A stretch of 62,443 bases of DNA, taken from positions 1-62,443 of IMG/VR virus record IMGVR_UViG_3300037424_000925; one strand, written 5' to 3'. This DNA is from a virus. Taxonomy: Duplodnaviria; Caudoviricetes. Of this stretch, positions 1,833 through 27,106 are shown piece by piece. The translations under genes were made by a program, and so were the position numbers. Position 1 is the first letter of the stretch, and every line of letters begins with the position of its first letter. The notes beneath the pieces were generated by a model. That model was not told the origin of the DNA. It did not search any database and was given only the letters and a program-made list of their open reading frames with translations.

Positions 1833-1841
1833 TGCTCCTCC

Positions 1842-2267: not shown

Positions 2268-2287
2268 TTTCAATCTCCTTTGCAATT

Positions 2288-2521: not shown

Positions 2522-2532
2522 TGTGTTCCTTC

Positions 2533-2805: not shown

Positions 2806-2870
2806 GGCACCTTACCATAAGATGCCCTCGAATTAGTGCCCGGCTTCCTCACGACCGGGTAAATTTTGGA

Positions 2871-3062
2871 TTATTTGAGGTGGGCCAGCTTTTCCAACTC
2901 TGCCAGCCTCTGCTTTTCCCATTCAGTGAGTATCTCATTAAGATGGTGATGACTTAGTAGTTCGATCAATTCACCTATCATTTCCCGATGCCGCAGGAAT
3001 GCTGCTGCATCGGGAAATTTGTCCTCGAATTCTTGCCATGCTTCGTGGCTCACATATCTCAT
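2871..3062 (-). CDS. Hypothetical protein
   Basis: GGAGG RBS, 63 aa, operon packing. Confidence 0.6.
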   Translation of the reverse strand: MRYVSHEAWQEFEDKFPDAAAFLRHREMIGELIELLSHHHLNEILTEWEKQRLAELEKLAHLK

Positions 3063-3072
3063 TGCTTCCTCC

Positions 3073-3168
3073 TTAATTCCCCATCATGGCCATCACAAAC
3101 AACAACCATATGGCGAATGTTACGACGCTCATGATTTTAACTGATTTCGTTTCTTCCGGTTTACCCAT
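3073..3168 (-). CDS. Small membrane peptide (31 aa, MGKPEETKSVKIMSVVTFAIWLLFVMAMMGN)
   Basis: Translated by hand; GAGGT RBS; single hydrophobic helix. Confidence 0.5.
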   Translation of the reverse strand: MGKPEETKSVKIMSVVTFAIWLLFVMAMMGN

Positions 3169-3217
3169 CGGTACCTCTTTCCCTTCCGGATTATGGTTCC
3201 ACGTGAAACCTTGGTCA

Positions 3218-3385
3218 TTAGTCAGTGCGGATTTGGACATCTGCAGAAACCCAAAGCCTGTTCACGATTTCCCATGCCCAATGAAAGGGGGCGCAATTGT
3301 CCTCATTGCATTCCAGCCCTTTGACCATACAGCCCCCATCCATAATCTTCCATGGACAATCTATTTTCATATTTTCAAAATCCAT
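3218..3385 (-). CDS. Small Cys-containing hypothetical protein (55 aa)
   Basis: Translated by hand (MDFENMKIDCPWK...CNEDNCAPFHW); GGAGGT RBS. Confidence 0.55.
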   Translation of the reverse strand: MDFENMKIDCPWKIMDGGCMVKGLECNEDNCAPFHWAWEIVNRLWVSADVQIRTD

Positions 3386-3405
3386 ATTCCTTTACCTCCT
3401 TTCCG

Positions 3406-3702
3406 TCAAAATAGGCTCATCTGTTCTGGCCCATTTCCCGGCGAAGATTTTCGCATTGTTTCCACCGGCAGTTTCCATCGCGGCCTTTCTCTCCCACCCT
3501 CGACACCCATGCAGGTATCACATTCTTGCTCCTTCACGTTATCCGCACAGTCGATGCAATATTTCGTTTCCAGCTGCATGGCCTGTGTTTTCTCCAGGCA
3601 CTGGGCCTGCGTGTAGGTGCATTTTTCAGTGCATACCCACTTGTGCGTCATTGTCCTTTTCACAGGGCATGGCACAAGGATCGTGTCCATTTCTTTCGTC
3701 AT
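3406..3702 (-). CDS. Hypothetical Cys-rich protein
   Basis: CIDC...CDTC; GGAG RBS. Confidence 0.55.
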   Translation of the reverse strand: MTKEMDTILVPCPVKRTMTHKWVCTEKCTYTQAQCLEKTQAMQLETKYCIDCADNVKEQECDTCMGVEGGRERPRWKLPVETMRKSSPGNGPEQMSLF

Positions 3703-3720
3703 ATCCGGTACTCCTTACCC

Positions 3721-4020
3721 TTACGGATTACGGAACTCCATGTTGTTGACCAACTCAAGCGCCGTGTCCGACAACCATTCAGAAGCCACGTCCTGGACTG
3801 TAGTGCCCAGCCCAACAGCCGAAGCGTACAACAACTTCCAGACTATCCTGGGGCAAGCAATAGGTAACAGGATTGTGTCTTCATACGCATGGTCATCGTC
3901 ATCGAATGTGACCTCGAATGCGACTGTCTTGGTTGGTTCCTTTAACCGTTCCAGTGCATCTTCCAGTGTGATTTTTCTGGTACTCACGAACCTTGCTCCA
4001 TCGCTCATGTTTTTACTCAC
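3721..4020 (-). CDS. Hypothetical protein
   Basis: Overlaps stop of upstream gene; GAGGAG RBS. Confidence 0.6.
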   Translation of the reverse strand: MSKNMSDGARFVSTRKITLEDALERLKEPTKTVAFEVTFDDDDHAYEDTILLPIACPRIVWKLLYASAVGLGTTVQDVASEWLSDTALELVNNMEFRNP

Positions 4021-4298
4021 CTCCTCATCAGTATAGCTGCCTTAATTTTCTGGTCTGGCGGCAGGCTTGCGAAGTCATACTCAACGCCATTCTTATACGC
4101 CCTTGCCAAAATGCAGCACCCATCGCCCACAGGGACAAGCCCGGATTCGACGAGGGCGCAACTGGATATTCCGTTATGAAACGAAAGGGCTGGACAGCCC
4201 TTGTGGTCATTCCCATAGACCGCTATCCCGGAAGGGCACATTTCAGCCAGACAACAAAACCCACAGCGGCAACACGGGTTAGGAAATTCCATAGTCAC
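4017..4298 (-). CDS. Cys-cluster (YkgJ-like Zn/Fe-S) small protein
   Basis: PCCRCGFCC...CP...CPAL...CAL pattern. Confidence 0.55.
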   Translation of the reverse strand: MTMEFPNPCCRCGFCCLAEMCPSGIAVYGNDHKGCPALSFHNGISSCALVESGLVPVGDGCCILARAYKNGVEYDFASLPPDQKIKAAILMRR

Positions 4299-4477
4299 AC
4301 CTCCTTCCCGAACACTTGGATATTCGAAAACCCCAAACGGTCCACCGCATCATCCTGAATTTGGTCAATCAGGAAGACAAGACCATTCAGGATAGGGTAT
4401 TTGTCTGCACATTCCAGGAGACAGCGTTTCTGCTCTCGGAGGGTCACAAAGTTTATTGTTCCGATGTCAATTTGCAT
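4295..4477 (-). CDS. Hypothetical protein
   Basis: GGAGG RBS, overlapping neighbours. Confidence 0.55.
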   Translation of the reverse strand: MQIDIGTINFVTLREQKRCLLECADKYPILNGLVFLIDQIQDDAVDRLGFSNIQVFGKEV

Positions 4478-4719
4478 AATTCCTCCTCCATTTCCAGGCT
4501 ATCTTCCAGGTCAATTTCCCTGTAAAAATCGTTATAAAAGTCTTCATCCATGAAATCATCGTATTCATGTTCGTACTCGATGAAAGTGTCCATTTCACTT
4601 TTACAGGAAGCGCAAATTTTTTCCTCACTTGAAATAATTTCCCCGCAAAAACATCTATGGATATGCGTGAGGACTTTTACCCTTTCAATCTTCTTAGGCT
4701 TTATGTATTTCCTACGCAT
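4453..4719 (-). CDS. Hypothetical Zn-finger protein with acidic tail
   Basis: CFCG...CASC then D/E/Y-rich C-terminus. Confidence 0.55.
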   Translation of the reverse strand: MRRKYIKPKKIERVKVLTHIHRCFCGEIISSEEKICASCKSEMDTFIEYEHEYDDFMDEDFYNDFYREIDLEDSLEMEEELCKLTSEQ

Positions 4720-4728
4720 AAGGACCTC

Positions 4729-5652
4729 CTACGCCGCCTTCCGGACCACTCGCTTCGTAGTCCCATCGCTCGACAACCCGGAGATATCCCCGATGTTGTC
4801 AGCCATGCTCTTGAGGCCCGCCGCGAACTGCTGTGAAAAGTCCCAGTTCCCACGGATATCCTTGGCTTCCACGTTTTCCAGCTCAGCTTTCAACTTCTCA
4901 ATCTCCGCCAACACATCCTGCAGGTCGAATATCTGGGCAATGTTCAGGTAATCATCGACCACCCTTTTGGGTTTCTTCAACGTCCCTTCTGTGATCTTCT
5001 GCCCCTGCTCGATCTTCTCGGATATTTCTTTGATGGCCTCCATCATGGCAGCCCGCGCCTGATCCATGATTTGCTCGGAATACTCCTCATAAGTTTCCGA
5101 TAATTGTTGCTGGAACCTGCGTTTCGCCTCTATCAGGTCCACCGGGTCAGCCTCATTGATTTCGGCGCCACGGATTTCGCAAACGTGCCATTTCACCTTG
5201 AACCTGTTCCGGATTTGCTGATCGGTTGGCCATTTGGCATCTGCCAGGATCGGATATTTCTCGATCATTTCCGTTTGAATCGCCGGCAGGTTGTTGATGA
5301 GGTCCTCGACGATTACAGCCTGATTGCTATCGATTTTCTCAAGACCGGTCTGTGCCTGCATAAAGTTCGAGTTCGGGACCAGCCAGGCCCCTCTAATGAA
5401 AAACCTTTTTCCAACGGTTGACATTAAAGATGTAACCTGTGAGCTGGGTTTCAGCATGTTAATCCTCACATCATCGGGGATGACATTCTTTCTACCCAGT
5501 TCGATGATGTCCAAGATATCGTCCGGATCCTTTCCCAGGTCAGACGCTTTCAGCTTGTCCTTGCCTGACCATGACGATACTGACGTGATCCAGATCGTAC
5601 AGTTTTGGTAAAGCTGCTGCTCTACCGTGGTTGTGTGCGTGTTCTCACTCAT
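4729..5652 (-). CDS. DUF3150-like protein
   Basis: WSGKDKL..SDLG, LGRK.VIP, RFFIRGAWLVP, RFKVKW motifs; context with AAA ATPase. Confidence 0.65.
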   Translation of the reverse strand: MSENTHTTTVEQQLYQNCTIWITSVSSWSGKDKLKASDLGKDPDDILDIIELGRKNVIPDDVRINMLKPSSQVTSLMSTVGKRFFIRGAWLVPNSNFMQAQTGLEKIDSNQAVIVEDLINNLPAIQTEMIEKYPILADAKWPTDQQIRNRFKVKWHVCEIRGAEINEADPVDLIEAKRRFQQQLSETYEEYSEQIMDQARAAMMEAIKEISEKIEQGQKITEGTLKKPKRVVDDYLNIAQIFDLQDVLAEIEKLKAELENVEAKDIRGNWDFSQQFAAGLKSMADNIGDISGLSSDGTTKRVVRKAA

Positions 5653-5739
5653 GTTTTTCTCCTCCTCCTATTTTGAATTTCCCGACGGTAATTCGCCAGT
5701 AGAAAGATCAACCACTTAGTTGACCCTTCGATTGAAGAG

Positions 5740-6153
5740 TTACCAATCACCCCCTCCAAAATCATCATTGACATACATCACGAGCTTTTTCGCCCCGGCT
5801 ATTGCAGAAGGAGCGTCCTCCCAGGCATAGTTCTTTGACTCGGCCCAGGCTATGTCCCCTTCCTGCAAATAAAACTGCTTGAAAGCCTCGCCATGCGCTC
5901 CCAACACTCCGGCCAGCCCACCACTATCCCAGAAGTCCGCTTGCACAGTGTAGCCGTTCTCAGTTCGTACAATGCCCAATTCGTAACGACACCCGGGAAT
6001 GTGAATAGCGTAATCGCAGACGCCCTTATCGTTTTTGTACCAGACGAAAGTTTTTTGGTCTAAGAACTCCCATCCTCTCCTCTGACAAAGGGCCTTGATA
6101 GTCTCAATGTCGAACTCAAGCCCTTCGGTTGAAATTGTGCTTATGTGTGACAT
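5740..6153 (-). CDS. DUF1257 (Ycf35-like) protein
   Basis: MSHISTIST...IKALC, YELGIV, ADFWD motifs. Confidence 0.7.
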   Translation of the reverse strand: MSHISTISTEGLEFDIETIKALCQRRGWEFLDQKTFVWYKNDKGVCDYAIHIPGCRYELGIVRTENGYTVQADFWDSGGLAGVLGAHGEAFKQFYLQEGDIAWAESKNYAWEDAPSAIAGAKKLVMYVNDDFGGGDW

Positions 6154-6166
6154 TTTCACTCCTCCT

Positions 6167-6379
6167 TCATCTCACCCATCGTGTTTGATTGCTTTCGTAA
6201 ACCGTGGGTTCGTCAGCGCAAACCGATATCATCTCTCCACAACTTGGGCATTTGATATCAACGCCGTCCACCAAGTCTAAGTAGGTCGCATCTATGCCCA
6301 AATGAAAACCACAGGAGCATTCAACGACTTCCAGCGAAAATTTCTCAGTTTCCACATCACCCACACAGTTTACTGACAT
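6167..6379 (-). CDS. Small Zn-ribbon protein
   Basis: CSCG...CPSCG; GAGGTG RBS before ATG 6379. Confidence 0.6.
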   Translation of the reverse strand: MSVNCVGDVETEKFSLEVVECSCGFHLGIDATYLDLVDGVDIKCPSCGEMISVCADEPTVYESNQTRWVR

Positions 6380-6560
6380 CACAAAGCACCTCCCCCTCGA
6401 AATATGACGGCTTATAATCCATCGTCTTGACTTGTCCGTGCCTTTCTTCGATTTCCCGCGTCGCTTCCTTACAACTGCCTCCCTCGTACCCGAAGGCCTC
6501 GACCCGGGTGCTTCCGTCCGGTAAATATTCAATCTCGATTCTTTTCATTTTGCTCTGCAC
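6357..6560 (-). CDS. DUF2997 family protein
   Basis: RIEIEYLPDGSTRVEAFGYEGGSCKEATREIE motif. Confidence 0.75.
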   Translation of the reverse strand: MQSKMKRIEIEYLPDGSTRVEAFGYEGGSCKEATREIEERHGQVKTMDYKPSYFEGEVLCDVSKLCG

Positions 6561-7023
6561 CCTCCTTCCATTTCTCAGAACTCAAATTTATCATACACTT
6601 CTTGCAGCTCGACTGCCGACCATCCGATGCTCCCTCTTTTTTGTGGTAGTCAGCCAGGGCCACATCATCCCCACACGTGCAGCATACTTTTGAAAGTGTG
6701 CCCACCCTAATTCGCGTGTAGTGCATATCACACAGGCCACTTGAGGTCACTGCCCTGCGGCAATTTAACACCGAACACACCTTGAACGGCATATCCAACC
6801 ATAACCCGGTTATTTCTCGGCCTTGCTCGCACTGCAAGCAATTAACATCCATCGACTCTACTGTGTACAAAGATTTTTGTTTGCGAATGGCTTTTTTCAG
6901 CCTTGCTTTGCATCTCGATTTCAGCATGATGCAGTTGCAACGGTCACAAAGGAAGAAATCTTCCGGGCTAAGCCCCGGATAAGTAGCAACGATCTCTTGT
7001 ACTCTTAAGTTCACTGCCTCCAC
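6529..7023 (-). CDS. Multi-Cys (Zn-binding) hypothetical protein
   Basis: CSVLNC..GLCDMHY and KVCCTC..DG..SSCKKC modules of the kind seen in phage endonuclease accessory domains. Confidence 0.55.
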   Translation of the reverse strand: MEAVNLRVQEIVATYPGLSPEDFFLCDRCNCIMLKSRCKARLKKAIRKQKSLYTVESMDVNCLQCEQGREITGLWLDMPFKVCSVLNCRRAVTSSGLCDMHYTRIRVGTLSKVCCTCGDDVALADYHKKEGASDGRQSSCKKCMINLSSEKWKEGAEQNEKNRD

Positions 7024-7203
7024 CTCCTTTTCTCAGATTGTTTGCTTTATTGCCTTAATCGCTTCAGTCTGCCCACCATCCCTCGATGGTGAGCAGGTGC
7101 AGGGATTAAAGCCAAAGGTATTCCAATTGGCAACGAAGCCCGCTGTTGTTAATGCTCGTCGCTTCCTCTGCTTTTAAATCGTGGACTAATTCGTCAAGCT
7201 CAC

Positions 7204-8730
7204 TCATGCCACCTTCCTCCCTTTCTTGACCTTTCGGCCGCTGTCAGTTATCGACTGCACTTTCCCGCCGGCAGGCTTATCGCTCGCCCAGATACAAACC
7301 CCACGGGCTTTCGTGCGGATCTCTTCCAGCTTCTCAGCATGGGCTTTCCCATAAGGCAGGACGTAATCACTGGCCTCTTCCGCAGAACATCCCATCATAG
7401 ATATGGTTTCTGCCAGCTTCGCAATGTCGGCGCCGCTGTACCCATCAAGAGAGAAATTCTTGGGGATTAAAACGCCCTCTTTTTTCTCCCAAATACCGGC
7501 TATCCCACGGGCCTCCTCAGCACTCGGCAAATCGGTGAAGAAAATACCACCAAACCTTCTCAGCAAAGCTCCACCAGATTCTTGGATAAGCGGCTCAAGG
7601 GCATTACAGGTGCCTATCCAGTAGGCCCCGCATCCCCGACTGTCTTCCATTTCTCGTAATAATTCTTTGAACAAAGACTGACCGACGCCACTGTCTCCAC
7701 CGGATGAAATACCGGAAGCTATCGCCTCGATCTCATCCATGAAGACAACGCATTTTCCCACCGCGCGGATGGTCTTGAAGGCATCTCTCAATCTTCCTTC
7801 TGCAACCCCCTGGTATCTGTCTTTTAAAGCGGAGAATCTCAGGATTAAGCATGGGATTTCCATCTCGTTGGCCACGGCCTTCGCAATATGACTTTTTCCG
7901 CTGCCTGGTATTCCAAAAATCAGGACACCCCTTGCCTTTGGGCTCTTAATGGTACTGAGGATATTCCTCTTCAGTCTTTCCAGACCAAAGATTTCATCCA
8001 ATGTCTCCGTGTAATGCCCAAACTCCAGGACTCCAGTGGCTTTCATCTGCGCCGCCTTCTGCTCCAAAATCGTCTTCACGTCAAAGCATCCCTTCATGAC
8101 CAGAGACAGCGCAAGGGCATTCTCTGCCCCTTCCCACGTCAACCCACGCATGGCATTAACGATCGTGTCCACATTTTCCGGGACTTCCATCTCGTTATCC
8201 TCGGCCATCTTCTCGACTATCCTGAGAAGCGCGGCCTCGTCCGGATACGCATAGTCAACAACTGTCACATCATCGGCCAGTTCAGGCGGGATGATCTTCT
8301 CTGCTGAAATAAAACAGATAGTCTTCGCCTGAAGTTTTAGGTTGGATTTCAAGTTCAGTGCCGCCCGGGTGATCGTGATCTTCTCGAAGTATTTGTGATA
8401 ATCCTTCATGAAGATCATCGCCCCAATCGGACGTGGCGGGTCACAGCTTTCGTCATACTTAATCGGCAATGATCCCGTTGCTTCCAGCGCCATACCAGGG
8501 TCAACGATTTTCCCGTTACCACCCTTCGGCTCGAAACCCGGCACAGAAATAGAACGCCAGGCCCACGCTCCTCCCCCATTCCGGACCATCGCCTGATAAC
8601 CCGCAGCAATGTCCCAGGAATAGAACTGAACATCCTCATCAAACTTCGCGCGATTTTCCCTGATTATCCGGTCTTCTTCAGTGGACTGGATAAAAAGGAA
8701 AGGATACCGCGCATCGTGGTGATGTTGCAT
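7204..8730 (-). CDS. Ycf46-like AAA+ ATPase
   Basis: Walker A GIPGSGKS, Walker B VVFMDEIE, LLRRF Arg finger; degenerate N-terminal AAA (EEDR, MKDYH); GGAGG RBS before ATG 8730. Confidence 0.85.
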   Translation of the reverse strand: MQHHHDARYPFLFIQSTEEDRIIRENRAKFDEDVQFYSWDIAAGYQAMVRNGGGAWAWRSISVPGFEPKGGNGKIVDPGMALEATGSLPIKYDESCDPPRPIGAMIFMKDYHKYFEKITITRAALNLKSNLKLQAKTICFISAEKIIPPELADDVTVVDYAYPDEAALLRIVEKMAEDNEMEVPENVDTIVNAMRGLTWEGAENALALSLVMKGCFDVKTILEQKAAQMKATGVLEFGHYTETLDEIFGLERLKRNILSTIKSPKARGVLIFGIPGSGKSHIAKAVANEMEIPCLILRFSALKDRYQGVAEGRLRDAFKTIRAVGKCVVFMDEIEAIASGISSGGDSGVGQSLFKELLREMEDSRGCGAYWIGTCNALEPLIQESGGALLRRFGGIFFTDLPSAEEARGIAGIWEKKEGVLIPKNFSLDGYSGADIAKLAETISMMGCSAEEASDYVLPYGKAHAEKLEEIRTKARGVCIWASDKPAGGKVQSITDSGRKVKKGRKVA

Positions 8731-8830
8731 CTCATTTACCTCCTTTCTCGGTTTATGTTTACTTTCTGACACATCCATGAAGGCCCCGGCGTTTCCGGTA
8801 CCGGGACCTTGAGCATGGGTCAGGATATCA

Positions 8831-9001
8831 TTATGCCTTTTTGTAGACGTTCAGGCCAATCGTGACACCGCTTTCCTGCACATTGCCTTCCGTACTTGCA
8901 ATTATAATGGTTTTGCCCGACTTACTCGGCCCAAAAGTCTTGCTCGTGTCCACCGTGATTACCAACTTTTTCCCGTCCATCTTCATCTCTACGTTCTTCA
9001 T
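8831..9001 (-). CDS. Small beta-rich conserved protein (56 aa, MKNVEMKMDGKKLVITVD...GPSKSGKTIIIASTEGN...GLNVYKKA)
   Basis: Translated by hand, not in ORF track; AGGAG RBS. Confidence 0.7.
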   Translation of the reverse strand: MKNVEMKMDGKKLVITVDTSKTFGPSKSGKTIIIASTEGNVQESGVTIGLNVYKKA

Positions 9002-9075
9002 TTTCCCTCTCCTTTCCTCGTACTTACGTTGGCGTTTCCCCTGTTAAGGAACCATGAGTGTTCCAGACAGGCACT

Positions 9076-9105
9076 AAACTAACAAATAACAAAAATTCTT
9101 GTCAA
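9076..9105 (-). promoter_or_regulatory. Sigma70-like leftward promoter
   Basis: Minus strand TTGACA-N18-TAGTTT upstream of the 56-aa gene and AAA module. Confidence 0.5.
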
Positions 9106-9127
9106 TAAAAAAGTTACTATCTTTTCT

Positions 9128-9919
9128 TTAATCTCTTGCGTTAGAATGCGATAGCTGATTGGCAGTTGTCCCAACGATATATTTCCCCGGTGGCACAATG
9201 ACATCAGGGTGCTGAATACCGTCAGCAGCTGTGTGGATTAGCGTGGTTGGTTCAGTGACAAAGTATTGCCCCCGATGATACAGCACCGGAAATTCAAAAT
9301 TATGATGTCCTGATCCCATTCTTTCATGAGCAAAAGCCGAATCCGGATAACTATTGCTATTTGCGGGTTTCAAGAGAAAATCTCCCTGCTGAATAACGTT
9401 TTTATCGGCCCCGATCCCCAGTTTTCTAAGCCGCTTGATGATATCGTTTGGATCACTCTCCATCCATCCCTGGGTTGCCGGTGCTCGATGGGTGTAAACA
9501 TGCCCAGAATCCCCGACAAATACGGCGAAACAGAACTTTTGAGATCCAGAGGCTTTCCAATTTTTCCAGTTTTTGCAATCAACCTCTCCACGAACATACA
9601 CAGCCTGATGATCGCCGGAGACAGCAACATCAACTGATCCAGTAGATATTGAGGCTTTTTCCTGGTATCCATAAGTTTCAAACCTTATTATTTTTACCGT
9701 TCGGGTTTCTTGATTGACAATAATATTCGGGAGCCAGTCCTTCGCAGAGGTCCAGTTTCCAGCGGGTGTTATGGTTTCAAAGTTGGTGAATGGTTTCAAC
9801 CAAGGCTGCATTGTGCGTTTTGCGATGTTTGCACAAAACTCCATGGTTTGGGCATCCATTGATTTCGATACTGGATACCCTGCTTTCATTGCGATTTTGT
9901 AATTCTGCAATTTTGTCAT
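9128..9919 (-). CDS. Hypothetical phage protein with QGD...GHH...H..H motif domain
   Basis: QQGDFLL, GSGHHN, LIHT..QHPD..VPPGKY; His-rich beta domain common in phages. Confidence 0.6.
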   Translation of the reverse strand: MTKLQNYKIAMKAGYPVSKSMDAQTMEFCANIAKRTMQPWLKPFTNFETITPAGNWTSAKDWLPNIIVNQETRTVKIIRFETYGYQEKASISTGSVDVAVSGDHQAVYVRGEVDCKNWKNWKASGSQKFCFAVFVGDSGHVYTHRAPATQGWMESDPNDIIKRLRKLGIGADKNVIQQGDFLLKPANSNSYPDSAFAHERMGSGHHNFEFPVLYHRGQYFVTEPTTLIHTAADGIQHPDVIVPPGKYIVGTTANQLSHSNARD

Positions 9920-10037
9920 AGGTTTTTCTCCTTTCATTTTATTTTTGTTAGGCTCATAAAAAAGCCCACGGGTGGAGGGTAAGTCCCGTAGGCTCTATAT
10001 AAGTCCAACGAAGTCCCCACAATGGGAACCCCTATTG

Positions 10038-11354
10038 TCAGACCCTCATGGGCATAACGAGAGCATGGTAACTCTCAAACCCCATGACAATGGGCTTGTT
10101 TCCCGTGTCGAACATGATGTGGAGGTCTTCACTTTCAATGGGCTTCATGGCATCAAGAATAAACTGGCCATTGAACCCAAACGTGACCTCCTCGCCATCA
10201 GGGTAATTCTTCGACTTTACAGGGATGGATATTTTCTGGTACTCTCCCTTCTCCGGATTGGTAAAATCAACATCAATCCCGCCATTGAACTTCAGCTTGA
10301 TTGAACTGTACTTTTCCCCGGTGATGGTCATGGCTTGCTGCAGTGGTGTCTCCATGTCAGCCTTTAGGATAGTCAGGCTTTTCTCGGGCTCCGATGGAAC
10401 AACAACTTTCCATGCCGGGAACCTGCTCTCCATCGCACGGATATACAGCATTCCACCTTTTTCTCCGAAAGGAACCGAAATCATGTGTCCGGCAGAGTTC
10501 ATCTGGATGTGGATAAGATCCTCATCCGCGAACAGTGCTTTGAACATTTTCACGGCGTCTATCGGGCAGGTGAACCCGCCAAGGCCTTCAGGCGAAACAA
10601 TATTCTCAGCATCCAGGCTCGACCAATGCAGCCTGTGCCCATCCGTTGCCACCGCGGCCAGGTTTTCCCGATCTTCCAGGTCAAAGTATATCCCCTTCAG
10701 ATTAAATCCCTGATCGTCCTTCTTTTGGGCAGCCATCGAGACATTCACCAAATTTTTCTTGGTGATGTTGATTGTCGTATCATGGCCGACCTCTTCATCG
10801 AAGGATGGGAACTCATCCACGTCGAACGTAGCCAGGCCCGTAAAATTCTGGCCTATCCGAACCCTGGGCGCTCCGGTCTTGAAAAGCAGACCGTCCTCGT
10901 CGCCCGTCCTGGTGATCTCCACTTCTTCATCGGTTAGGGATGATAAAATCTTTCCCAGATCCTTGGCGGAGATGCAGAATTTCTCGTTCCAGGAGCTTTC
11001 TTCTGTGGACGCGTTCTCGCAGGCTTCCAGGATTACTGTACGCATGGCAGGAACTGTGGCTTTTCCCGGAAAGGATATTCCATAGTCCTCGGCCAACTGC
11101 TTCAGCTGTGGCCCTTTCAGCCCGTCAATCCCGTCTTCCCCGATCACACCGTCAATGCCTTCAGCGGGCATCGTCCGTCCGTAATCGGAAATTTCCAGCG
11201 GAATCTTGACGGCCATCTCCAGGTCAGTCGCTATCAGCTTCTGTCCGGCGCCATCCAGTACAACGCAACTCAGGATAGGGAAATTTCCACCTTCCTTGGC
11301 TACCTTGGATGCAATCTTCACTGCCGCTGTTAAACTTTTCCTATTTATTTTCAT
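10038..11354 (-). CDS. dnaN: DNA polymerase III beta sliding clamp with N-terminal helical insertion
   Basis: PILSCV, ATDLE, AVATDGHRL, RFPAW..V.P, FGFN..FILD, LVMPMRV signature motifs. Confidence 0.9.
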   Translation of the reverse strand: MKINRKSLTAAVKIASKVAKEGGNFPILSCVVLDGAGQKLIATDLEMAVKIPLEISDYGRTMPAEGIDGVIGEDGIDGLKGPQLKQLAEDYGISFPGKATVPAMRTVILEACENASTEESSWNEKFCISAKDLGKILSSLTDEEVEITRTGDEDGLLFKTGAPRVRIGQNFTGLATFDVDEFPSFDEEVGHDTTINITKKNLVNVSMAAQKKDDQGFNLKGIYFDLEDRENLAAVATDGHRLHWSSLDAENIVSPEGLGGFTCPIDAVKMFKALFADEDLIHIQMNSAGHMISVPFGEKGGMLYIRAMESRFPAWKVVVPSEPEKSLTILKADMETPLQQAMTITGEKYSSIKLKFNGGIDVDFTNPEKGEYQKISIPVKSKNYPDGEEVTFGFNGQFILDAMKPIESEDLHIMFDTGNKPIVMGFESYHALVMPMRV

Positions 11355-11432
11355 AATGAACCCCTCCTTTGGGTTTGGTGATTTAAACCCTCCAGTATGG
11401 GCAGGAGCATTTTCCCGCCCACAATGCAGAGA

Positions 11433-11642
11433 TTAAACCCCGGCACGCTGGTAGTATTTCCCCCAAGAAGGCCTTTCGTTTACGGGGACATGCAGCGTTT
11501 CCTGGTTTACAGTGTCGATGATCCAGTAATGATTTCCTTCGGGCCATCTTTGGCCGTCCGTGGTTTTCCCGGTGATCCAAGCATCCCCAATTTGCAAGGA
11601 ATGAGCAATTTGCCGCATTTTATACTTCGATAATTTTCCCAT
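11433..11642 (-). CDS. Hypothetical protein
   Basis: GGAG RBS before MGKLSK. Confidence 0.5.
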   Translation of the reverse strand: MGKLSKYKMRQIAHSLQIGDAWITGKTTDGQRWPEGNHYWIIDTVNQETLHVPVNERPSWGKYYQRAGV

Positions 11643-11828
11643 CAGTGCTCCTATCCGTTGATTTAAGCCTTCCAGCATACGCCGGGACTTTCCCGGCGCA
11701 TAAGCAAGGTTTAATTTCTCCTGATAAAATATTGCCAAACATTCTTGACCATTTTTCGCCAACAGTCCCGATTGAGGAAGCCGCCGTATTCGTACCAGGT
11801 TTTCTTGGAAACGCGCTCTGATCTCATC

Positions 11829-11933
11829 TCAATCCCTGTTCCTTTTCCGGCTTTTCTTGGCCGCTTTGTTCGCCTTTTTTCTCGCCTTCCGGTATTCAGC
11901 CGTTACCGTTTTGTTCTCATCGAATTTCTTCAT
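11829..11933 (-). CDS. Arg/Lys-rich 34-aa peptide (MKKFDENKTVTAEYRKARKKANKAAKKSRKRNRD)
   Basis: Translated by hand; GGAGG RBS. Confidence 0.6.
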   Translation of the reverse strand: MKKFDENKTVTAEYRKARKKANKAAKKSRKRNRD

Positions 11934-12038
11934 GGTATTTCCTCCCGTTTTCTTATGGTTGAGCCAACACAACAACCGCCCCGATAAGCCCCATAGCCAT
12001 CAGGAAAACAAACTTCACCGTTTCCAGAAATGCTCGCA

Positions 12039-12257
12039 TTATTTCAGCCCCCATTTCTTGTTAAATTTCTTGTTGATTTTCTCAATCACTTCAAAAGTGG
12101 ATAGCCTTTTCGTGTTCCTTACCGTCCAGTTTCCATTTTTCTTGTGGTACGTGTAAGTCGTGTCGTACTTCGCCTTGGTTTTCTTGCTCCCAGCATCAGC
12201 CGACGGCGACCATAGCAAGGCACTCGCTATCACTGCCGATATCAAAATCTTTCTCAT
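12039..12257 (-). CDS. Small secreted basic protein
   Basis: Signal peptide MRKILISAVIASALLWSPSADA. Confidence 0.55.
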   Translation of the reverse strand: MRKILISAVIASALLWSPSADAGSKKTKAKYDTTYTYHKKNGNWTVRNTKRLSTFEVIEKINKKFNKKWGLK

Positions 12258-12594
12258 AGTTTTCTCCCTTTCCATGGGCGTAGGTGAATGCGCAATTCTT
12301 TAGGCTCACTTCCCATCCCATTTTCTCGGAGGAAGAAAAGCCAAAGCCCAAAGCCCACGCTCCACCCGCCATAACTTCCGGGTGATGTTTCTTGTCAAAC
12401 TCGATGAATTTATCGACTAACCACACATTCATGACTTTACCACACTTAGGATATCCGGAGATTTTCTCGATATCGTCATAGTCCGGGATGAATTTCTTGT
12501 AAATAGCGACAATGACATCCTGCTGATGGTCTTTTTCCTCGAACAGCGGTTCCAGGAGCTTTTTCATTTTTTTCTCGCTTAGATCATATTGCAT
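12196..12594 (-). CDS. Hypothetical protein
   Basis: GGAGG RBS before MQYDLS. Confidence 0.6.
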   Translation of the reverse strand: MQYDLSEKKMKKLLEPLFEEKDHQQDVIVAIYKKFIPDYDDIEKISGYPKCGKVMNVWLVDKFIEFDKKHHPEVMAGGAWALGFGFSSSEKMGWEVSLKNCAFTYAHGKGENYEKDFDIGSDSECLAMVAVG

Positions 12595-12643
12595 AATTTC
12601 CCCTCCATAGGCATAATTCACCCCGTTATTGGGGTTTCTACGC

Positions 12644-12677
12644 AAAAAAGGGGAGCCCGGTTTCCCGAACTCCCCCT
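12644..12677 (-). terminator. Intrinsic terminator with GAAA loop
   Basis: Minus strand GGGGAGTTCGG-GAAA-CCGGGCTCCCC-TTTTTT, with G.U pairs on minus strand. Confidence 0.75.
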
Positions 12678-12768
12678 TCCACCACGGGAGGCGATCAAAC
12701 ATACAAAAACCTATGTGAGAATTTCTCGTAAGACGTGGCCCATTTTCTGGCCCGCTGAATAGACACCC

Positions 12769-12975
12769 TCAAATCTCGAAGGCGACAATAGACGTGCTGT
12801 GAATTGCAGTAGTGCTGAAAGAATTTTCGCATGATTTCTCGCCTCCCCTTCCGTATATTTTGTAATGATCGTAAAATTCCCGCATGGTCTGGAGTTTGTC
12901 CATGTAGCCAAGCCTGTCGTCCTCGCGGATTTCCCGTAGTCCTTCCCGGAGATATTCTTCATCTTCTTTTTTCAT
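12769..12975 (-). CDS. Hypothetical protein
   Basis: GGAGGT RBS before MKKEDEE. Confidence 0.55.
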   Translation of the reverse strand: MKKEDEEYLREGLREIREDDRLGYMDKLQTMREFYDHYKIYGRGGEKSCENSFSTTAIHSTSIVAFEI

Positions 12976-13181
12976 GTTCACTACCTCCTGTTTTCTTTTA
13001 TCTATCATCATCCACATAAAGCCACAAGATTTCTTGTAGACTTATGTAGAGGAGGTCCGTTATGTTCCAAGGTGGACCAGCCCTGAGCCGTTATTTTTCC
13101 CGACGATCTTCAGCGGGTATTCATTATTTCATTTTTCTCGTAGCTCCAGGTTATCAGCCAGAAAACCTTTTTCTTATACCC

Positions 13182-13214
13182 AAAAAAGCCCGACCCGGTT
13201 TCCCAGGTCAGGCT
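13182..13214 (-). terminator. Intrinsic terminator with GAAA loop downstream of parB
   Basis: AGCCTGACCTGG-GAAA-CCGGGTCGGGCT-TTTTT. Confidence 0.75.
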
Positions 13215-13242
13215 ATATTTGTGATGGGCAATAGCGATTTTC

Positions 13243-14139
13243 CTACACGGCCACGGCCTCTTTGGGGGCGTTGATTTCCTTCTTCGCTTCAAAGGCAGCC
13301 AATTGCTCCAGGGTTTTCTCGGCAATCCGCTTCATGCTCTGGAAAGTCAGTTTCAATTTTCCCACATCCCGTTTCCGGGCGTTGATAACATTCGGATCAC
13401 CAACCCAGTCTTTCTCGTAACTGGCAATCATCTTCTCCAGTTTCTCACTCGCTTTTCTCGCCTTACTCAGCCCGCCATTTTCCCCAGCCTCTTTTTTGGC
13501 CTGTGCGAAAATATCACGCTGATTTTGTTTGTCCAGGTACGCCTGAATCGCCGCCAGCATTTGACTGGCTTTATTCTTGTCCTTCAGGCAGCTGTTGAAA
13601 ACGTGCATTTGTTGTTGGGCGCTCTCGAAGGAGGTCGCCAATTTTCTCGCCACGTCCTTTGATATTTTCCCGTCATCCACAAACTTATGGAGTTCAGGCG
13701 CCAGTCCGCACAATTCCAGGTCCGACTTGATCGTAGCGACACCAACCCCGTGAATTTTCGCGACACGATTGATAGACAGCCCATGCTCATCAACCGACCG
13801 CTGATAACTTCTCGCCCGATTCATGATGCTCAAATCTTCCCGGTTCGCATTCGCCATAAGCTGTTTTTCCCACACGTCCCGCTTGCTGATACCGTCATAC
13901 ACGAAGCACGGAATTTCCTGCAAGTTCGCCAGCATGGCAGCCTTGGTGCGCCGGTGGCCGTCGATCACCTGATACTCACCGTCAGGAACATTTTCCGGGG
14001 ACCAGACTGTTATCGCCTGATCGTCCATGAAACCGGCAGCTTTCATGCTGTCAGCCAGTTCCTCAATCCCCGTATAAATTTCTCGGGGTTGTTCTGGGTC
14101 CAGGTGGATCTTCGTCACTTCAATTTTTCTCGTTTCCAT
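13243..14139 (-). CDS. parB: ParB/RepB/Spo0J family protein (ParB CTPase domain + HTH)
   Basis: PEQPRE, IEELADSM, VIDGHRR, ANANREDLS followed by HTH. Confidence 0.85.
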   Translation of the reverse strand: METRKIEVTKIHLDPEQPREIYTGIEELADSMKAAGFMDDQAITVWSPENVPDGEYQVIDGHRRTKAAMLANLQEIPCFVYDGISKRDVWEKQLMANANREDLSIMNRARSYQRSVDEHGLSINRVAKIHGVGVATIKSDLELCGLAPELHKFVDDGKISKDVARKLATSFESAQQQMHVFNSCLKDKNKASQMLAAIQAYLDKQNQRDIFAQAKKEAGENGGLSKARKASEKLEKMIASYEKDWVGDPNVINARKRDVGKLKLTFQSMKRIAEKTLEQLAAFEAKKEINAPKEAVAV

Positions 14140-14266
14140 AGCATATCCCTCCCGTGATAGTTGTCGGCGTCTTATGACACCAGGCAGGGCAAGAAAGATA
14201 ATTTCTCGCTCTCCCTGCTACCACCGGATTTTCTCATCCGGTCAAAACACCGGACTCTATAACGCC

Positions 14267-14298
14267 AAAAGCCGACGCCCGATTTCTCGGAGTCGGCT
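14267..14298 (-). terminator. Terminator-like hairpin with GAAA loop
   Basis: AGCCGACTCCGA-GAAA-TCGGGCGTCGGCT-TTTGGCG. Confidence 0.6.
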
Positions 14299-14316
14299 GG
14301 CTGTAAGGTTTCTTTA

Positions 14317-14637
14317 TTATGATCCGAACGATAAGCGGAAAATTTTCACGCCTTCTTCAATAGGTAAAATTCTACCAGCAGTGCCTAATGCTAAAAGCGT
14401 ATTTTCTGATATTTCATGTATGTCTTCAAGAAAAATGTGTATGAAATCGCATGTTATTTGGATAGCTTCCTCAGCTTTTTCCAGAATTTCCTTCCATGTT
14501 GGAGATTCCAGGATGGGGCTAATGTAGTCCTTGCCTTTTCCTGTTCTATCCCAATATTCGTCGTAATCATGGATTAGCTTAATTTTTCCCGCCACAGCTA
14601 TTTCTGCATGTGGTTTGTTTGTGGCATCTATAACCAT
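14317..14637 (-). CDS. Hypothetical protein
   Basis: AGGAGG RBS, 106 aa. Confidence 0.65.
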   Translation of the reverse strand: MVIDATNKPHAEIAVAGKIKLIHDYDEYWDRTGKGKDYISPILESPTWKEILEKAEEAIQITCDFIHIFLEDIHEISENTLLALGTAGRILPIEEGVKIFRLSFGS

Positions 14638-14688
14638 TTTACTCCTCCTTTATATGGATTCGGATTTTCTCAGTAAGCTCATACCGCC

Positions 14689-14719
14689 AAAAGCCGACTC
14701 TGGATTTTCCAGGTCGGCT
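14689..14719 (-). terminator. Terminator-like hairpin, near-copy of the 14267 hairpin
   Basis: AGCCGACCTGGA-AAA-TCCAGAGTCGGCT-TTTGGCG. Confidence 0.6.
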
Positions 14720-14742
14720 CGTGGTGTTGGTGGATTTTCTTG

Positions 14743-14790
14743 CTACTTTTTCCGCAGGATGTAAACTTTCCCGTTTTTCTCGCGTCTCAT
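14743..14790 (-). CDS. 15-aa basic leader-like peptide MRREKNGKVYILRKK
   Basis: GGAGG RBS; ends just before a terminator hairpin. Confidence 0.35.
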   Translation of the reverse strand: MRREKNGKVYILRKK

Positions 14791-14939
14791 TATTCTATCC
14801 TCCAGTTTTCGTTATACCCAACCCCGCCCTCAAAGAATCAAGATTTTCTCACACAAGATTTTCCTGCATCGCCCAGATCGCTTATGTTTTCCCGAAGGTG
14901 TCCACTTTCTGAATTAGAATTTCTCATGCTTGAGAATTT

Positions 14940-15850
14940 CTCGCCCTTGAGGGCCAGATTTGATAGCCGACTGTTTTATGGCCCGTCGGCAATTAAGCCT
15001 ACTGCTATACTTCACCGCCCCCAATACTCCGGGGGCAGTTTTACTCATGTTCATACTTCGGTACTACAGAGTCGGAGGGACTCTATGATTCTATCAGTCT
15101 CCGTCCTTCCCAGGATAAGCAGTCTCAAAAACATCAATCGCACTTCTCAGTTAGTCAGTTCGGCAAGCATCATTGCTCAGGGCCATTGTAGTCTCTCTCA
15201 ACGGTAGCTCCGCCCAAGCTGGCAAGGCTGATGTATCAAAAGATACTCCGACCTATCGCTCCGCAAACCGTTCTTAACTTCCCAATCAGCACGGTATTTC
15301 AACCGCTATAGCTCCCAGTCCAAACATCAACCGAAAGAGCTTACTTTACGACGTAAGCCGCCGCCCCGTGGTGTGGAGGAACATCAGCCTTTTAAGACCG
15401 CAGGGCCGGGATAGGTGAATCCCGTCTGTTTACTCGCTCAGACCATGAGCGTCAGATTGCTTTGGCTTGACCGCAGGCATAACAGATAACCACGGGCAGG
15501 ACTTCTAACTCGTAGTGCAACCATACCCGAACTCCCGCAGGACGTTAGGCCACACTCAGCCTTGAGGGATAGCTGAAACCCCAGCATGAAAATTTATCAT
15601 GTCATGCCAACACGCCGCAGCTTCACTTAGCAAGAACAGGACTTGCGGGTCCATTGCCATAGTCCGCCTATTGGGTCCAACCAGCTCCATGCACGGACCA
15701 CACAGAACCGTGATCTCATTCGCAGCCTAAGCGACTCAGCTATTCATGGGCGGATTGCCAGTATGATCAGCTTCATCAGACCGCTATCGAGGTCAGTTAA
15801 GAGCGTAAGCCCTTAAAGATAGGCCCTGCCGGACAAGCCAGGGCGCATCA
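14940..15850 (-). ncRNA. Putative large structured non-coding RNA (family unknown)
   Basis: No convincing ORF over ~0.9 kb; more than a dozen short stems plus long-range helices; several A.C mismatches on + become G.U on -. Confidence 0.55.
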
Positions 15851-15858
15851 TCAAGAGT

Positions 15859-15948
15859 TTATGCGCGTTTCCGCAATATGGTCACAACCTTGCGGGTTGA
15901 ATGTATCTGTTTCGCAATCCGTATCCATTCCGCTTTCTTTTGTGTCAT
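15859..15948 (-). CDS. 29-aa basic peptide MTQKKAEWIRIAKQIHSTRKVVTILRKRA
   Basis: Translated by hand; GGGAGG RBS; lies between 18-bp array and putative ncRNA. Confidence 0.5.
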   Translation of the reverse strand: MTQKKAEWIRIAKQIHSTRKVVTILRKRA

Positions 15949-15965
15949 GATATCCCTCCCAGGAT

Positions 15966-16397
15966 TGAACGCCATTCGGTATATGAATGTTATTCAGATT
16001 ATGAACGGTATTTAGATAATGAATCGCATTCATATAATGAACGCTACTCACTTTGTGAACGCTATTCATCTCTTGAACGTGGTTCATAATCCGAACGTCA
16101 TTCAGTTAATGAACCTTACTTAGTTAGTGAACGCCATTCGCTTTGTGAACGTGGTTCACTTGCTGAACACCATTCGGTTACTGAATACCATTCGATTTAC
16201 GAACTCCATTCAGTTGCTGAACGCCATCCATCTACTGAACGTCATTCAGTCTCCGAATACCGTTCACTTGTCGAATAGTATTCAATGTCTGAATGCCCAT
16301 CAGTTATTGACCAGCTTTCAAATGTCGAATGCCTCTCGATTACTGAAAGTAAGTCACTTGTCGAATGGTATTCGGTTTACGAATACTGTTCACTTTT
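15966..16397. repeat. Tandem array of 24 x 18-bp units, consensus YGAAY-NNN-RTTCR-N5
   Basis: Exact 18-bp phase held for all 24 units; each has a 13-bp imperfect palindrome. Confidence 0.95.
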
Positions 16398-16585
16398 TAA
16401 ACCATGATATTTTAAAAACTCTCTTTCTATTCCTTTACATCTGGGAAGACTAAAAATATGTATAGGGGAAAAAATAAACTTCCCTTTCTTCTTCCCTTCT
16501 TCTTCTCTTTCACTTCCCTACACTTGGGAAAGGGGAAAATATGTACCCCTCAAAAAAAAAACTTTCAAACTTTTTCATTTTGTTC

Positions 16586-16614
16586 TTGACAAGCACATAT
16601 ACAAGCTGTATATT
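16586..16614 (+). promoter_or_regulatory. Sigma70-like rightward promoter
   Basis: TTGACA-N17-TATATT. Confidence 0.7.
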
Positions 16615-16650
16615 GTATCCAACATTAACATTAATCGGAGGGTATAGAAC

Positions 16651-16803
16651 ATGGGAAATTTAATACCGGGTCTTTTGTGTGTAAGTCTTTTGTGTCTTTT
16701 GTGGAGTATGATCAGGGGGATCAGAAAAATAGATCAGATCTTCTTTGAATTGACAGGAAAGGATGTATCCTTCTTTCGATTCTGGACATGGAAAAACATC
16801 TAA
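16651..16803 (+). CDS. 50-aa membrane peptide (MGNLIPGLLCVSLLCLLWSM...)
   Basis: Translated by hand; GGAGG RBS directly after promoter. Confidence 0.55.
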   Translation: MGNLIPGLLCVSLLCLLWSMIRGIRKIDQIFFELTGKDVSFFRFWTWKNI

Positions 16804-16861
16804 ACCAAAGGGGGGAAGGGAATATCCTTCCCCCTCTATTAAAGGAAAGGGGAAAGACACC

Positions 16862-17836
16862 ATGAGAACAAGCACATTGAAAAAAGATGGAATAGAAAAT
16901 GGAAAATGGGAAGGGAGAAGGGAAGTATCCGACCTTCTAAAAGAAGATAAACTTTTACGTGAATACCAAAGGATAATTGACACCGATAATGAATTTGAAC
17001 CACTTGAGTCGGCCATGGACAAAGAAGATGTACTCCAAACGAGAATCTTATATCTTCTGGAAAACAAAGAAAAGATGGATGTTTACAGGAAAGAAGATCC
17101 AAAGAGATGGACTAACAGCCTAAATTTTTACGTCAGAAAAAGAAGGATAAACACTTTCCAGAGTCGTGAAAAATTTATCAGCCTGTCAGATAACGACACC
17201 TCAGAAAATACTCTGGTATCCATTGACCATGATGCAGATCTTCAAAACTGGATTCTTTCCCAAAAAGATGCAGAGGGAAAGGAAATTTTTACGCCCAGGC
17301 AGAAAGAGATTCTTTCCTTGCGCTTTACAGGGGAAAAGCAAACCGATATCGCAAAACTTCTTGATACCGATCAAGGGAACCTTGCGCGCACTTTCAAAAC
17401 GATAGATAGCAAGCTGGCAAAACTTCCCATTAAAGAAATGGTATCTTCCACCTGGTACCAGGGAAAAGGGAATGATCTTCCTATGAGTAGGGTATGGGCA
17501 GCAAAATGTCAAGATACGAACAGACCACATATTCCATGCCCTTCTCTTCCCATCATTCCCTCTATTCCTTCTCTGCCAGGTATCGTATGGAACATGGGAA
17601 GTCTACGCTCTGGATGCTATACGTCTCACGTCAAGGCTCCAGTTCTGGATATCATGGGAAGAATAGGGAAGAGTAACTCTTTCGATGCAACAAAGAATCT
17701 CAAAGATATACAGGATAGAAGGGATGCAGAACACTTCCACTTCTATCAGAATGTCATTGACTGTTCCAGAGGAAATGTTGACCACTCTTTCAATCCATTT
17801 AGTGAAGAGTCTCAAAGAAGGAAGTGGAAGAAGTAA
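16862..17836 (+). CDS. Sigma-factor region 4/LuxR-like HTH protein with long C-terminal extension
   Basis: FTPRQKEILSLRFTGEKQTDIAKLLDTDQGNLARTFKTIDSKL. Confidence 0.65.
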   Translation: MRTSTLKKDGIENGKWEGRREVSDLLKEDKLLREYQRIIDTDNEFEPLESAMDKEDVLQTRILYLLENKEKMDVYRKEDPKRWTNSLNFYVRKRRINTFQSREKFISLSDNDTSENTLVSIDHDADLQNWILSQKDAEGKEIFTPRQKEILSLRFTGEKQTDIAKLLDTDQGNLARTFKTIDSKLAKLPIKEMVSSTWYQGKGNDLPMSRVWAAKCQDTNRPHIPCPSLPIIPSIPSLPGIVWNMGSLRSGCYTSHVKAPVLDIMGRIGKSNSFDATKNLKDIQDRRDAEHFHFYQNVIDCSRGNVDHSFNPFSEESQRRKWKK

Positions 17837-17900: not shown

Positions 17901-18295
17901 TTATCTTGTCTTGTCTTGTCTTGTGGTCTGTCTGCTGTCTTATGTGTCTTGTGTGTGTCTGCTGTCTTGTCTTGTGGCTTGCCTACTGTCTTGCCTACTG
18001 TCTGCTGTCTGCTGTCTGCTGTAGTTCTTAATAAAGCGAATGATGACTACCAGGGATTAGTGTACTATTGTAATATTGTAATATTGTATTGTATAGTCCT
18101 CTATACTAATTGATGACAGCCCATAATATGGGAGGCTATGCCCATGCAAGCGCCTGTATACTGTATATTGTATACTGTATACTGTATACCGTATACCGTA
18201 TACCATGCCCTTAACACCTGTTAACTTAACACCTGTTAACCTTGCATTTATGCAATGGTTAAAGGTGGACTAAGTGGACTTAGTCCAATGGACTA
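17901..18295. repeat. Cluster of simple repeats and palindromes
   Basis: (TTGTC)n/(CTGTCTG)n 17901-18022; (TATTGTAA)n ~18066; 7 x YYGTATA 18154-18202; 2 x CTTAACACCTGTTAA; palindrome TGGACTAAG..CTTAGTCCA. Confidence 0.85.
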
Positions 18296-18593
18296 ACCTA
18301 TTAATAATCATTAAACCATCAATCCCATAATCATAAGTACCTGATATGACTACACTATTCAGCCATCAATCCTTTAGGCTATGTTAAGAGCCTCTAAAAC
18401 AAGGGGTACCCCTCCATTTATTTGAGTAAGACCGGGCATACAGCTGCGGGCCGGGTATCGCCCGTGATCCTAAACGGAATTCTCAAAACTAAAGTCCGGC
18501 CCCTTTTCTTTCCGATAATTCTCAAAACTTTATTTTTTTTTCTTCATTTTTTGACCTCCCACTTTTTTCCTTTCGCCCTCGCACGAATTTTAC

Positions 18594-26866: not shown

Positions 26867-27104
26867 GCGTTATCAGGATTCGGATGGGATCCCGCACGAT
26901 ATAATGGAGATGGTTCGCTTAGAGACAGGATGGGCAGCGAGTCGAATTCAGGAAGGCGAAAAAGCGATTGAGGCGCTGAAGGAATGCCGGAGGTTTAATA
27001 AGTTACAGAATGACCTTGAGGCGTATCTCTTCTACATGGCAGAATGGGCGCTCAACAACAAGATGAAACCCGACCCGAAAAATTACGGAGTGCGAAAGGA
27101 TTAA
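26853..27104 (+). CDS. Hypothetical protein
   Basis: GGAGGA RBS. Confidence 0.55.
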   Translation: MDLDKRYQDSDGIPHDIMEMVRLETGWAASRIQEGEKAIEALKECRRFNKLQNDLEAYLFYMAEWALNNKMKPDPKNYGVRKD

Positions 27105-27106
27105 TA

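Follow-up and report, generated by a model that had tools for sequence, protein, structure and literature searches.

Among large structured RNAs, GOLLD and ROOL are found in phages and OLE lies in sense inside an operon. The lambdoid antitermination elements put and nut are only tens of nucleotides long, and the CI RNA of satellite phage P4, which is cut from its own replication-operon leader and controls that operon via transcription termination, is a small RNA that base-pairs with nearby targets. Here we describe a structured RNA of ~845 nt, encoded on the minus strand (15861 to 15017) of IMG/VR virus record IMGVR_UViG_3300037424_000925, a linear tailed-phage record of 62,443 bases with an estimated completeness of 77%. 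The whole record was analysed and is called the window below. The RNA lies upstream of a ParB-family gene, in a tract (14940-15850) that a preliminary description, made from the letters of the window, had proposed as a new large phage non-coding RNA. Relatives of the locus bear this proposal out: the tract is conserved and non-coding, and its helices covary well above shuffled and slid controls.

The RNA represents a new family, large and complex, which resembles the large ornate RNAs and the lambdoid antitermination signals but belongs to neither, as no covariance model matches it. Very few bacterial or phage RNAs of such size and complexity are known, and most of them have no settled function. 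Like GOLLD, ROOL and OLE (abstracts of PMC12286853 and PMC9723947), the RNA spans hundreds of nucleotides, is non-coding, and combines many conserved helices, joined by highly conserved unpaired stretches, with variable peripheral hairpins. It has the length (>500 nt), the non-coding character and the many covariation-supported helices by which large ornate RNAs are described, and for oligomerisation the sequence offers a lead. It differs from GOLLD, ROOL and OLE in matching no covariance model, in occupying a ParB operon leader instead of their tRNA clusters or OLE-associated protein genes, and in being found on nine contigs only.

Results

Conservation of the tract upstream of ParB

The tract lies within a 2.1-kb gap between the last start of a leftward operon (14637) and the first start of a rightward operon (16763), the largest gene-free stretch in the open reading frame (ORF) list of the window. 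A blastn search with 14600-16400 gave no match in phage and plasmid collections, and single-protein searches of IMG/VR, with the 357-aa protein that opens the rightward operon or with ParB, returned no loci. Relatives were found through the downstream neighbour of the RNA, the ParB-family gene (13243-14139, minus strand; Pfam ParB_N and HTH_ParB), which has 37 relatives. Alignment A1 comprised 32 of these and the window protein, with a fragment (P0009) and the distant P0035-P0038 left out, and the A1 profile search yielded 5 IMG/VR loci and 12 metagenome loci.

A profile of the RNA core matched 14 of 31 loci, corresponding to nine distinct contigs including the window, and all of them carry the RNA upstream of ParB. 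The E values ranged from 1e-96 to 1e-81, with 1.5e-5 for a divergent member, L005; in the window, nhmmer found the core as a single copy on the minus strand (E = 1.4e-91). By blastn, the minus strand of the window was 85% identical over 14736-15861 to L013, whose ParB is just 51% identical, and 63% identical over 15090-15828 to L007. The core (~15150-15460) was 63-69% identical in L017/L004, L002/L009, L003, L008 and L011, and a second block of similarity covered the 5' end of the RNA (15732-15859). Overall, the DNA of the tract is 63-85% identical in relatives whose ParB identity is 47-78%.

Four sequencing runs from other sediment samples yielded contigs related to the tract. One of these contigs, of 216 nt over 15167-15341, comes from a run that is labelled metatranscriptomic but marked as probably DNA, and nothing on expression is drawn from it. 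Two scans of IMG/VR with conserved-column patterns recovered just the known contigs and one chance match (L019), and such a pattern produced nine matches in 185,579 species genomes, against ~5 expected by our own estimate, none of which was confirmed by the profile. These motif scans gave no further member; the RNA family, with its nine contigs, is rare. The loci with distant ParB proteins, L006 and L018, had no such RNA even at E 100, and in L010, L014 and L015 the upstream DNA is too short to judge its presence.

Covarying helices in the conserved core

The conserved core (15063-15383, minus strand) is supported by alignment A3, pair counts and nhmmer. A3 holds the core of eight sequences, and its six helices, with 34 pairs in total, were named from a covariation scan; L005, alignable in the core alone, was left out of A2, A3 and A4. 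The 34 pairs were formed in 96.7% of the cells, compared with 89.0 ± 1.1% in shuffles, none of which (0/500) reached the observed value, and 37-48% in slid controls. Twelve of the pairs had changed on both sides, against 4.6 in shuffles (again 0/500 reached this number) and 1-3 in slid controls, and the covariation score was 0.381 versus 0.227 in shuffles. The covariation check on homologues, which the preliminary description had asked for, thus came out in favour of the RNA.

From the 5' side, the core helices on the minus strand are Hg (15339-15358), in which 6/6 pairs changed on both sides, Ha (15312-15337), Hf (15291-15306), He (15267-15271 with 15201-15205), Hk (15259-15263 with 15073-15077) and Hc (15225-15254). 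The divergent L005 has helix Hf rebuilt with other letters. Helix Hk joins a conserved purine stretch within the core to a conserved pyrimidine motif near the 3' end; it is altered in L002 alone, where both partners change together, and it crosses He, forming a pseudoknot. Pairing of the pyrimidine-rich 3' motif, as an anti-Shine-Dalgarno sequence, with the ribosome-binding site of ParB had also been considered; this idea was dropped in favour of Hk because both Hk sides change together in L002. A boxA-like reading of one conserved stretch was dropped as well, the stretch being paired within helix Ha. An RNAalifold model of the first core alignment was partly wrong, with an invariant helix at a place where a covarying alternative is available, and was not used as it stood.

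The strand of the RNA follows from the pairs themselves. On the minus strand G-U accounts for 49 of the 272 pair cells, with two invariant U-G pairs among them, and because of these 49 cells the RNA is assigned to the minus strand, the sense of ParB, as the mismatches noted in the preliminary description had also favoured. The core pairs are 96.7% paired on the sense strand versus 78.7% on the antisense strand. At all loci the element is in the ParB sense, which corresponds to the minus strand of the window.

One strand of a helix, at columns 177-180 of A3, can pair either upstream, in helix Hc, or downstream, in a further helix, Hb, and the two pairings are mutually exclusive. Pairing reaches 100% in Hc and 97.5% in Hb, where 3/5 of the pairs changed on both sides. 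As both helices covary yet exclude each other, they suggest that the RNA may adopt two conformations. In addition, the conserved 13-nt loop of a hairpin in the 5' domain, P4, is complementary to a G-rich box of the core (15209-15224, minus strand), and L011 alone has one extra base in the P4 loop together with one extra complementary base in the G-rich box. This points to a possible contact between the P4 loop and the G-rich box, either long-range within one molecule or intermolecular.

Architecture of the whole RNA

The RNA has at least nine helices over its ~845 nt, all coordinates here being on the minus strand. Its extent follows from blastn conservation, its 5' edge from a conserved motif that contains the stop codon of an upstream ORF, and its 3' edge from a terminal hairpin. 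The 5' domain (15690-15861) was defined from alignments and comprises hairpins P1 (15821-15847), P2 (15797-15816) and P4 (15742-15768), the last with the conserved 13-nt loop. The stems of P2 and P4 keep pairing with other letters in L002, L003 and L011, as read from the alignments, in which A4 places the L003 stem out of register. At the other end, the 3' terminal hairpin (15017-15036) occupies the same aligned place in 8/8 sequences with different stem letters.

Between the 5' domain and the core lies a variable centre (15384-15689), where lineage-specific hairpins come and go. This region could not be aligned reliably, and we claim no consensus structure for it. It includes a long-range pairing of 15489-15496 with 15365-15372 that the preliminary description had listed; L013 keeps 7/8 of its pairs via G-U changes. 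The other stems listed there are likewise present in the sequence, and they fared differently among relatives: those at 15339-15358, 15821-15847, 15797-15816 and 15742-15768 are conserved with compensatory change, but the pairing at ~15663/15749 is not conserved, its partner being different in the two nearest relatives.

The folding energy of the tract gave a far weaker signal than covariation. The whole tract folded at -280.9 kcal/mol on the plus strand (z -1.84, 20 shuffles) and at -335.3 kcal/mol on the minus strand (z -2.53, 20 shuffles), slightly better than shuffles, so that the comparison with shuffles laid down in the preliminary description goes in the expected direction but by a marginal excess. 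In 200-nt windows (30 shuffles each), the centre (15101-15700) had z values of +0.5 to -1.6 on both strands, like shuffles; just the two ends of the tract reached -3.2 to -4.1, and the repeats at its right and a few other places stood out. It is by covariation, and not by folding energy, that the tract exceeds chance. Local folding stronger than anywhere in the tract (z -4.2 to -5.8) was seen at 12501-12800 (minus strand) and 18101-18400 (both strands).

The tract does not encode a protein

The tract is not protein-coding, whether in a standard or a recoded frame. No open frame crosses 14940-15850 under table 11, nor when TAG, TGA or TAA is read as a residue, which, with its location in the largest gap of the ORF list, agrees with its earlier description as gene-free. 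The longest frame touching the tract is on the plus strand, begins in the repeats to the left and stops at 15207/15231; for the longest frame overlapping the tract, neither Pfam nor PHROGs gave a match. Substitutions between the window and L013 are spread evenly over the codon phases of the tract (40/41/37), and its 13 indels (lengths 1, 1, 2, 2, 1, 1, 2, 2, 1, 1, 1, 6 and 3) are mostly not multiples of three. The adjacent 106-aa gene, compared in the same pair, has 8/3/24 substitutions and no indels.

Stop-free stretches of 84-144 aa do occur in antisense in the homologous regions. Their translations agree between relatives just in patches of 12-100 residues that switch frame, as expected of conserved DNA alone. 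The tract also differs in composition from its surroundings, with a G+C content of 0.47-0.54 versus 0.33-0.45 in the non-coding DNA on its right, and with an AT skew opposite in sign to that of the coding DNA at its left.

Comparison with known RNA families

Rfam 15, which covers GOLLD, ROOL, OLE, group I and II introns, riboswitches, T-box, RNase P, tmRNA and 6S among its families, gave no match at gathering score in the whole window. At E values up to 10, only two chance-level matches appeared over 14400-16500, with 16-18 bits against gathering scores of 35-40; both results agree with the preliminary description, which had recognised no family. Nothing was found at E up to 1 inside the homologous RNA region of five relatives, and ARAGORN found no tRNA or tmRNA.

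A full-text search of the literature returned no description of a large RNA upstream of a phage ParB gene. The main text of a survey of 10,006 candidate structured viral RNAs (PMC10690425) names no partition, sigma or antitermination motif, and its supplementary tables could hold a fragment of this RNA.

Weak Rfam matches to small-RNA families were seen ~400 nt after ParB in L007 (7294-7359), L002 (7309-7374) and L017 (7272-7344). In L007 and L002 they coincide with the site of a second conserved terminator-type hairpin.

Small ORFs, terminators and a recurrent motif in the leader

The RNA is flanked by two small ORFs on the same strand. Upstream, a basic ORF of 29 aa (15859-15948, minus strand) has a strong ribosome-binding site and ends with a stop codon inside the conserved 5'-edge motif of the RNA. 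In the window, L007, L017 and L002, which are 4/5 of the motif-bearing sequences, an ORF preceded by a ribosome-binding site terminates at this motif in the alignment, and the encoded peptides are unlike each other. Downstream, ~230 nt after the RNA and before the first terminator, a micro-ORF of 15 aa with a ribosome-binding site (14743-14790, minus strand) encodes MRREKNGKVYILRKK. Relatives of this peptide are present at the same place in L013, L007, L017, L002 and L008, with none clear in L003 and L011, and they form a family of basic peptides of 15-24 aa. The 29-aa upstream ORF ends in a motif similar to the micro-ORF.

Three intrinsic terminators follow on the minus strand, all of one type in which a long G+C-rich stem carries an apical loop rich in A and precedes a U tract. 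T1 (14689-14718; -17.4 kcal/mol) lies 25 nt after the micro-ORF. T2 (14267-14297), which is conserved family-wide, lies after the 106-aa gene and ~130 nt before ParB, and its equivalent, a hairpin with a U tract before ParB, was found in L013, L007, L017 and L011. T3 (13183-13214), with 12 pairs, of which eight are G-C, and a U tract, lies just after the ParB stop, and like terminators come after ParB in L002 (6912-6942 and 7342-7369) and L007 (7324-7357). Relatives that are elsewhere ~65% alike share 81-97% identity in the T2-type elements.

The tops of the terminator hairpins are formed by a short A-tract motif, which is clustered on the minus strand at 14660-14950 and corresponds to the repeats that appear to the left of the tract when the plus strand is read. 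Over nine homologous leader regions the motif occurs in 55 sense versus 12 antisense copies. Within the window, 21 of its 41 minus-strand copies fall in 11569-14892, which covers the initial 3.3 kb of the leftward operon with its coding regions.

Upstream of the small ORF, L007 has a promoter-like site (10 of 12, extended -10), from which the whole leader would be one transcript.

This arrangement invites comparison with known leader systems. As with the HK022 put RNA and with lambda nut and N, a structured RNA stands at the start of a long phage operon that has several intrinsic terminators further down, and as in lambdoid antitermination signals there is a gene for a small basic peptide close by, and hairpin loops rich in A recur. 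Unlike compact, put-like two-stem-loop RNAs that bind and modify RNA polymerase, the present RNA is ~845 nt long with at least nine helices and no model match, and its contact with RNA polymerase is hypothetical. In its short ORF, which has a ribosome-binding site and is separated from the structural genes by an intrinsic terminator (25 nt further on in the window, 23 nt in L002), the leader is reminiscent of leader-peptide attenuators. It differs from them in that L017 and L007 have a spacing of 80-114 nt, conservation concerns the sequence of the peptide and not a run of regulatory codons, no alternative antiterminator pairing was found, and the large upstream RNA has no counterpart there. 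The system of satellite phage P4 is similar in being a plasmid-like phage element with a leader RNA ahead of a replication operon; unlike for the CI RNA, no target repeats complementary to the present RNA were found.

Genomic neighbourhood

The leftward genes (153-14637) encode the ParB-family protein, a DnaN-like sliding clamp, an AAA+ ATPase, a DUF3150 protein and a methyltransferase. The ParB, clamp and AAA+ genes constitute a replication-partition operon, and 'early', as the preliminary description called it, is an inferred label. The rightward genes begin at 16763 with the 357-aa protein (16763-17836, plus strand) and continue with a helix-turn-helix regulator, a D5-type primase-helicase, an intein-bearing terminase, a protease, a capsid protein and tail genes. 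The 357-aa protein has a weak PHROG match to sigma factors and, among 5.8 billion clusters, no relative besides itself.

The gene order is kept in relatives, with a divergent sigma-70-like gene on one side and ParB, small genes, the clamp and the AAA+ ATPase on the other. The divergent gene is sigma-70-like in 5/5 relatives (L002, L003, L007, L011 and L017), each with Pfam region 4, and region 2 was found in L017 only.

Directly to the right of the RNA locus (15967-16400) are ~24 tandem copies of an 18-bp unit with a short inverted repeat, which look like an iteron or centromere-like array. Relatives have repeat arrays of other sequence at the same place. A conserved short inverted repeat just upstream of the ParB ribosome-binding site (14140-14180, minus strand, in the window; also in L017, L002, L011 and L005) could be an operator. 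An intein with Hint and LAGLIDADG homing endonuclease domains lies within the putative large terminase (27044-30034, plus strand), and another within the AAA+ ATPase of L003 (10326-12821).

Discussion

The tract very probably encodes a functional structured RNA of some kind. For its role, we favour control in cis of terminator read-through in the operon leader, with a probability of roughly 40%. The leader would run from a promoter through the small ORF, the RNA, the micro-ORF and one or two terminators to ParB, and then through another terminator to the replication genes, as one minus-strand transcript of the ParB/sliding-clamp/AAA+ ATPase operon. The RNA would fold while transcription is still under way, by itself or together with a bound factor, which might be the micro-peptide or a host elongation factor. 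In its folded state it would decide whether RNA polymerase reads through the series of terminators, and read-through would in turn set the expression of the partition and replication genes. A cis-acting antiterminator had been suggested earlier from the position at the head of the operon, and the conserved row of intrinsic terminators downstream fits that suggestion.

Several points weigh against this role or against the strength of the case for it. None of the sequencing runs listed is on record as RNA, and no minus-strand promoter was found in the window at 14300-17000. No pairing was found that would link the conserved core to the terminators, which are 300-900 nt apart from it, and known cis-acting antitermination RNAs are about ten times smaller. 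The ParB relatives L016 and L012, with 1456 and 732 nt of upstream DNA, respectively, have no such RNA even at E 100, so the RNA is not obligatory for such ParB operons. Moreover, the helices were picked from the same eight sequences, which inflates their contrast with the slid controls, and these eight amount to ~5 lineages, so that the pair counts err on the generous side; the folding energy of the tract is marginally better than that of shuffles.

A tentative alternative, nearly as likely as control in cis, is a free-standing large ornate RNA. The leader would end at the first conserved terminator, or would be processed, to leave a stable RNA of 0.85-1.3 kb that acts in trans, either as a ribonucleoprotein with the basic micro-peptide or by self-assembly, at some stage of the phage or plasmid-like life cycle. 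The size, the count of conserved helices and the variable peripheral hairpins match those of large ornate RNAs, and both the window and relatives have a strong conserved terminator after the RNA. The complementarity of the P4 loop and the G-rich box, with its matched insertion in L011, would suit an intermolecular contact as well as an intramolecular one, and two exclusive covarying helices are expected of an RNA with more than one state. However, the RNA has no visible promoter of its own, always lies in sense within an operon leader, and is matched by no covariance model of the described ornate RNAs. The most novel version of control in cis would be a new class of giant ornate RNA that achieves with ~850 nt what a protein or a 70-nt RNA does in lambdoid phages: it would render RNA polymerase resistant to the terminator series, via a conformational switch between the two exclusive helices and the loop-to-box contact, and thereby turn on the partition/replication module of a sigma-factor-encoding phage. 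In this complete form we consider the proposal rather unlikely.

The location next to the 18-bp iterons and at the head of a replication gene operon, together with an excess of G over C on the RNA strand, could also suit a transcript that primes or activates an origin, like a plasmid primer RNA. This is improbable: the phage itself encodes a D5-type primase-helicase, relatives conserve the RNA but have iteron arrays of other sequence, and nothing in the fold points to a DNA hybrid. Still less probable is an element acting as DNA, through hairpins in single-stranded DNA or as a protein-binding platform for partition or replication, which a control region between divergent operons with repeats on both sides might suggest. 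Double-stranded protein-binding DNA would not select compensatory stem changes, the many G-U (G-T) pairs are found on one strand only, and 845 nt of nested and pseudoknotted helices far exceed known single-strand initiation signals. A self-splicing intron or a decayed or recoded protein gene is close to refuted. An ORF does stop exactly at the 5' edge, as at intron starts, and the stop-free antisense stretches could recall a former gene; but no group I or II model matched even at E 10, nor did domain V or D1-D4, the upstream ORFs are mutually unrelated and not continued downstream, and the flanking ORFs are not halves of one gene. The dead-gene version is countered by the lack of a frame opened by single-stop recoding, of codon periodicity and of Pfam or PHROGs matches, and by the frame-breaking indels.

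Taken together with its fixed place in the leader, the ORF at the 5' edge, the gene for a micro-peptide and the row of terminators make the function of this ornate RNA directly testable by read-through. A role in cis would make it, by a wide margin, the largest known phage RNA that controls transcription; with a role in trans, it would constitute a new family of ornate RNAs, open to structure determination.

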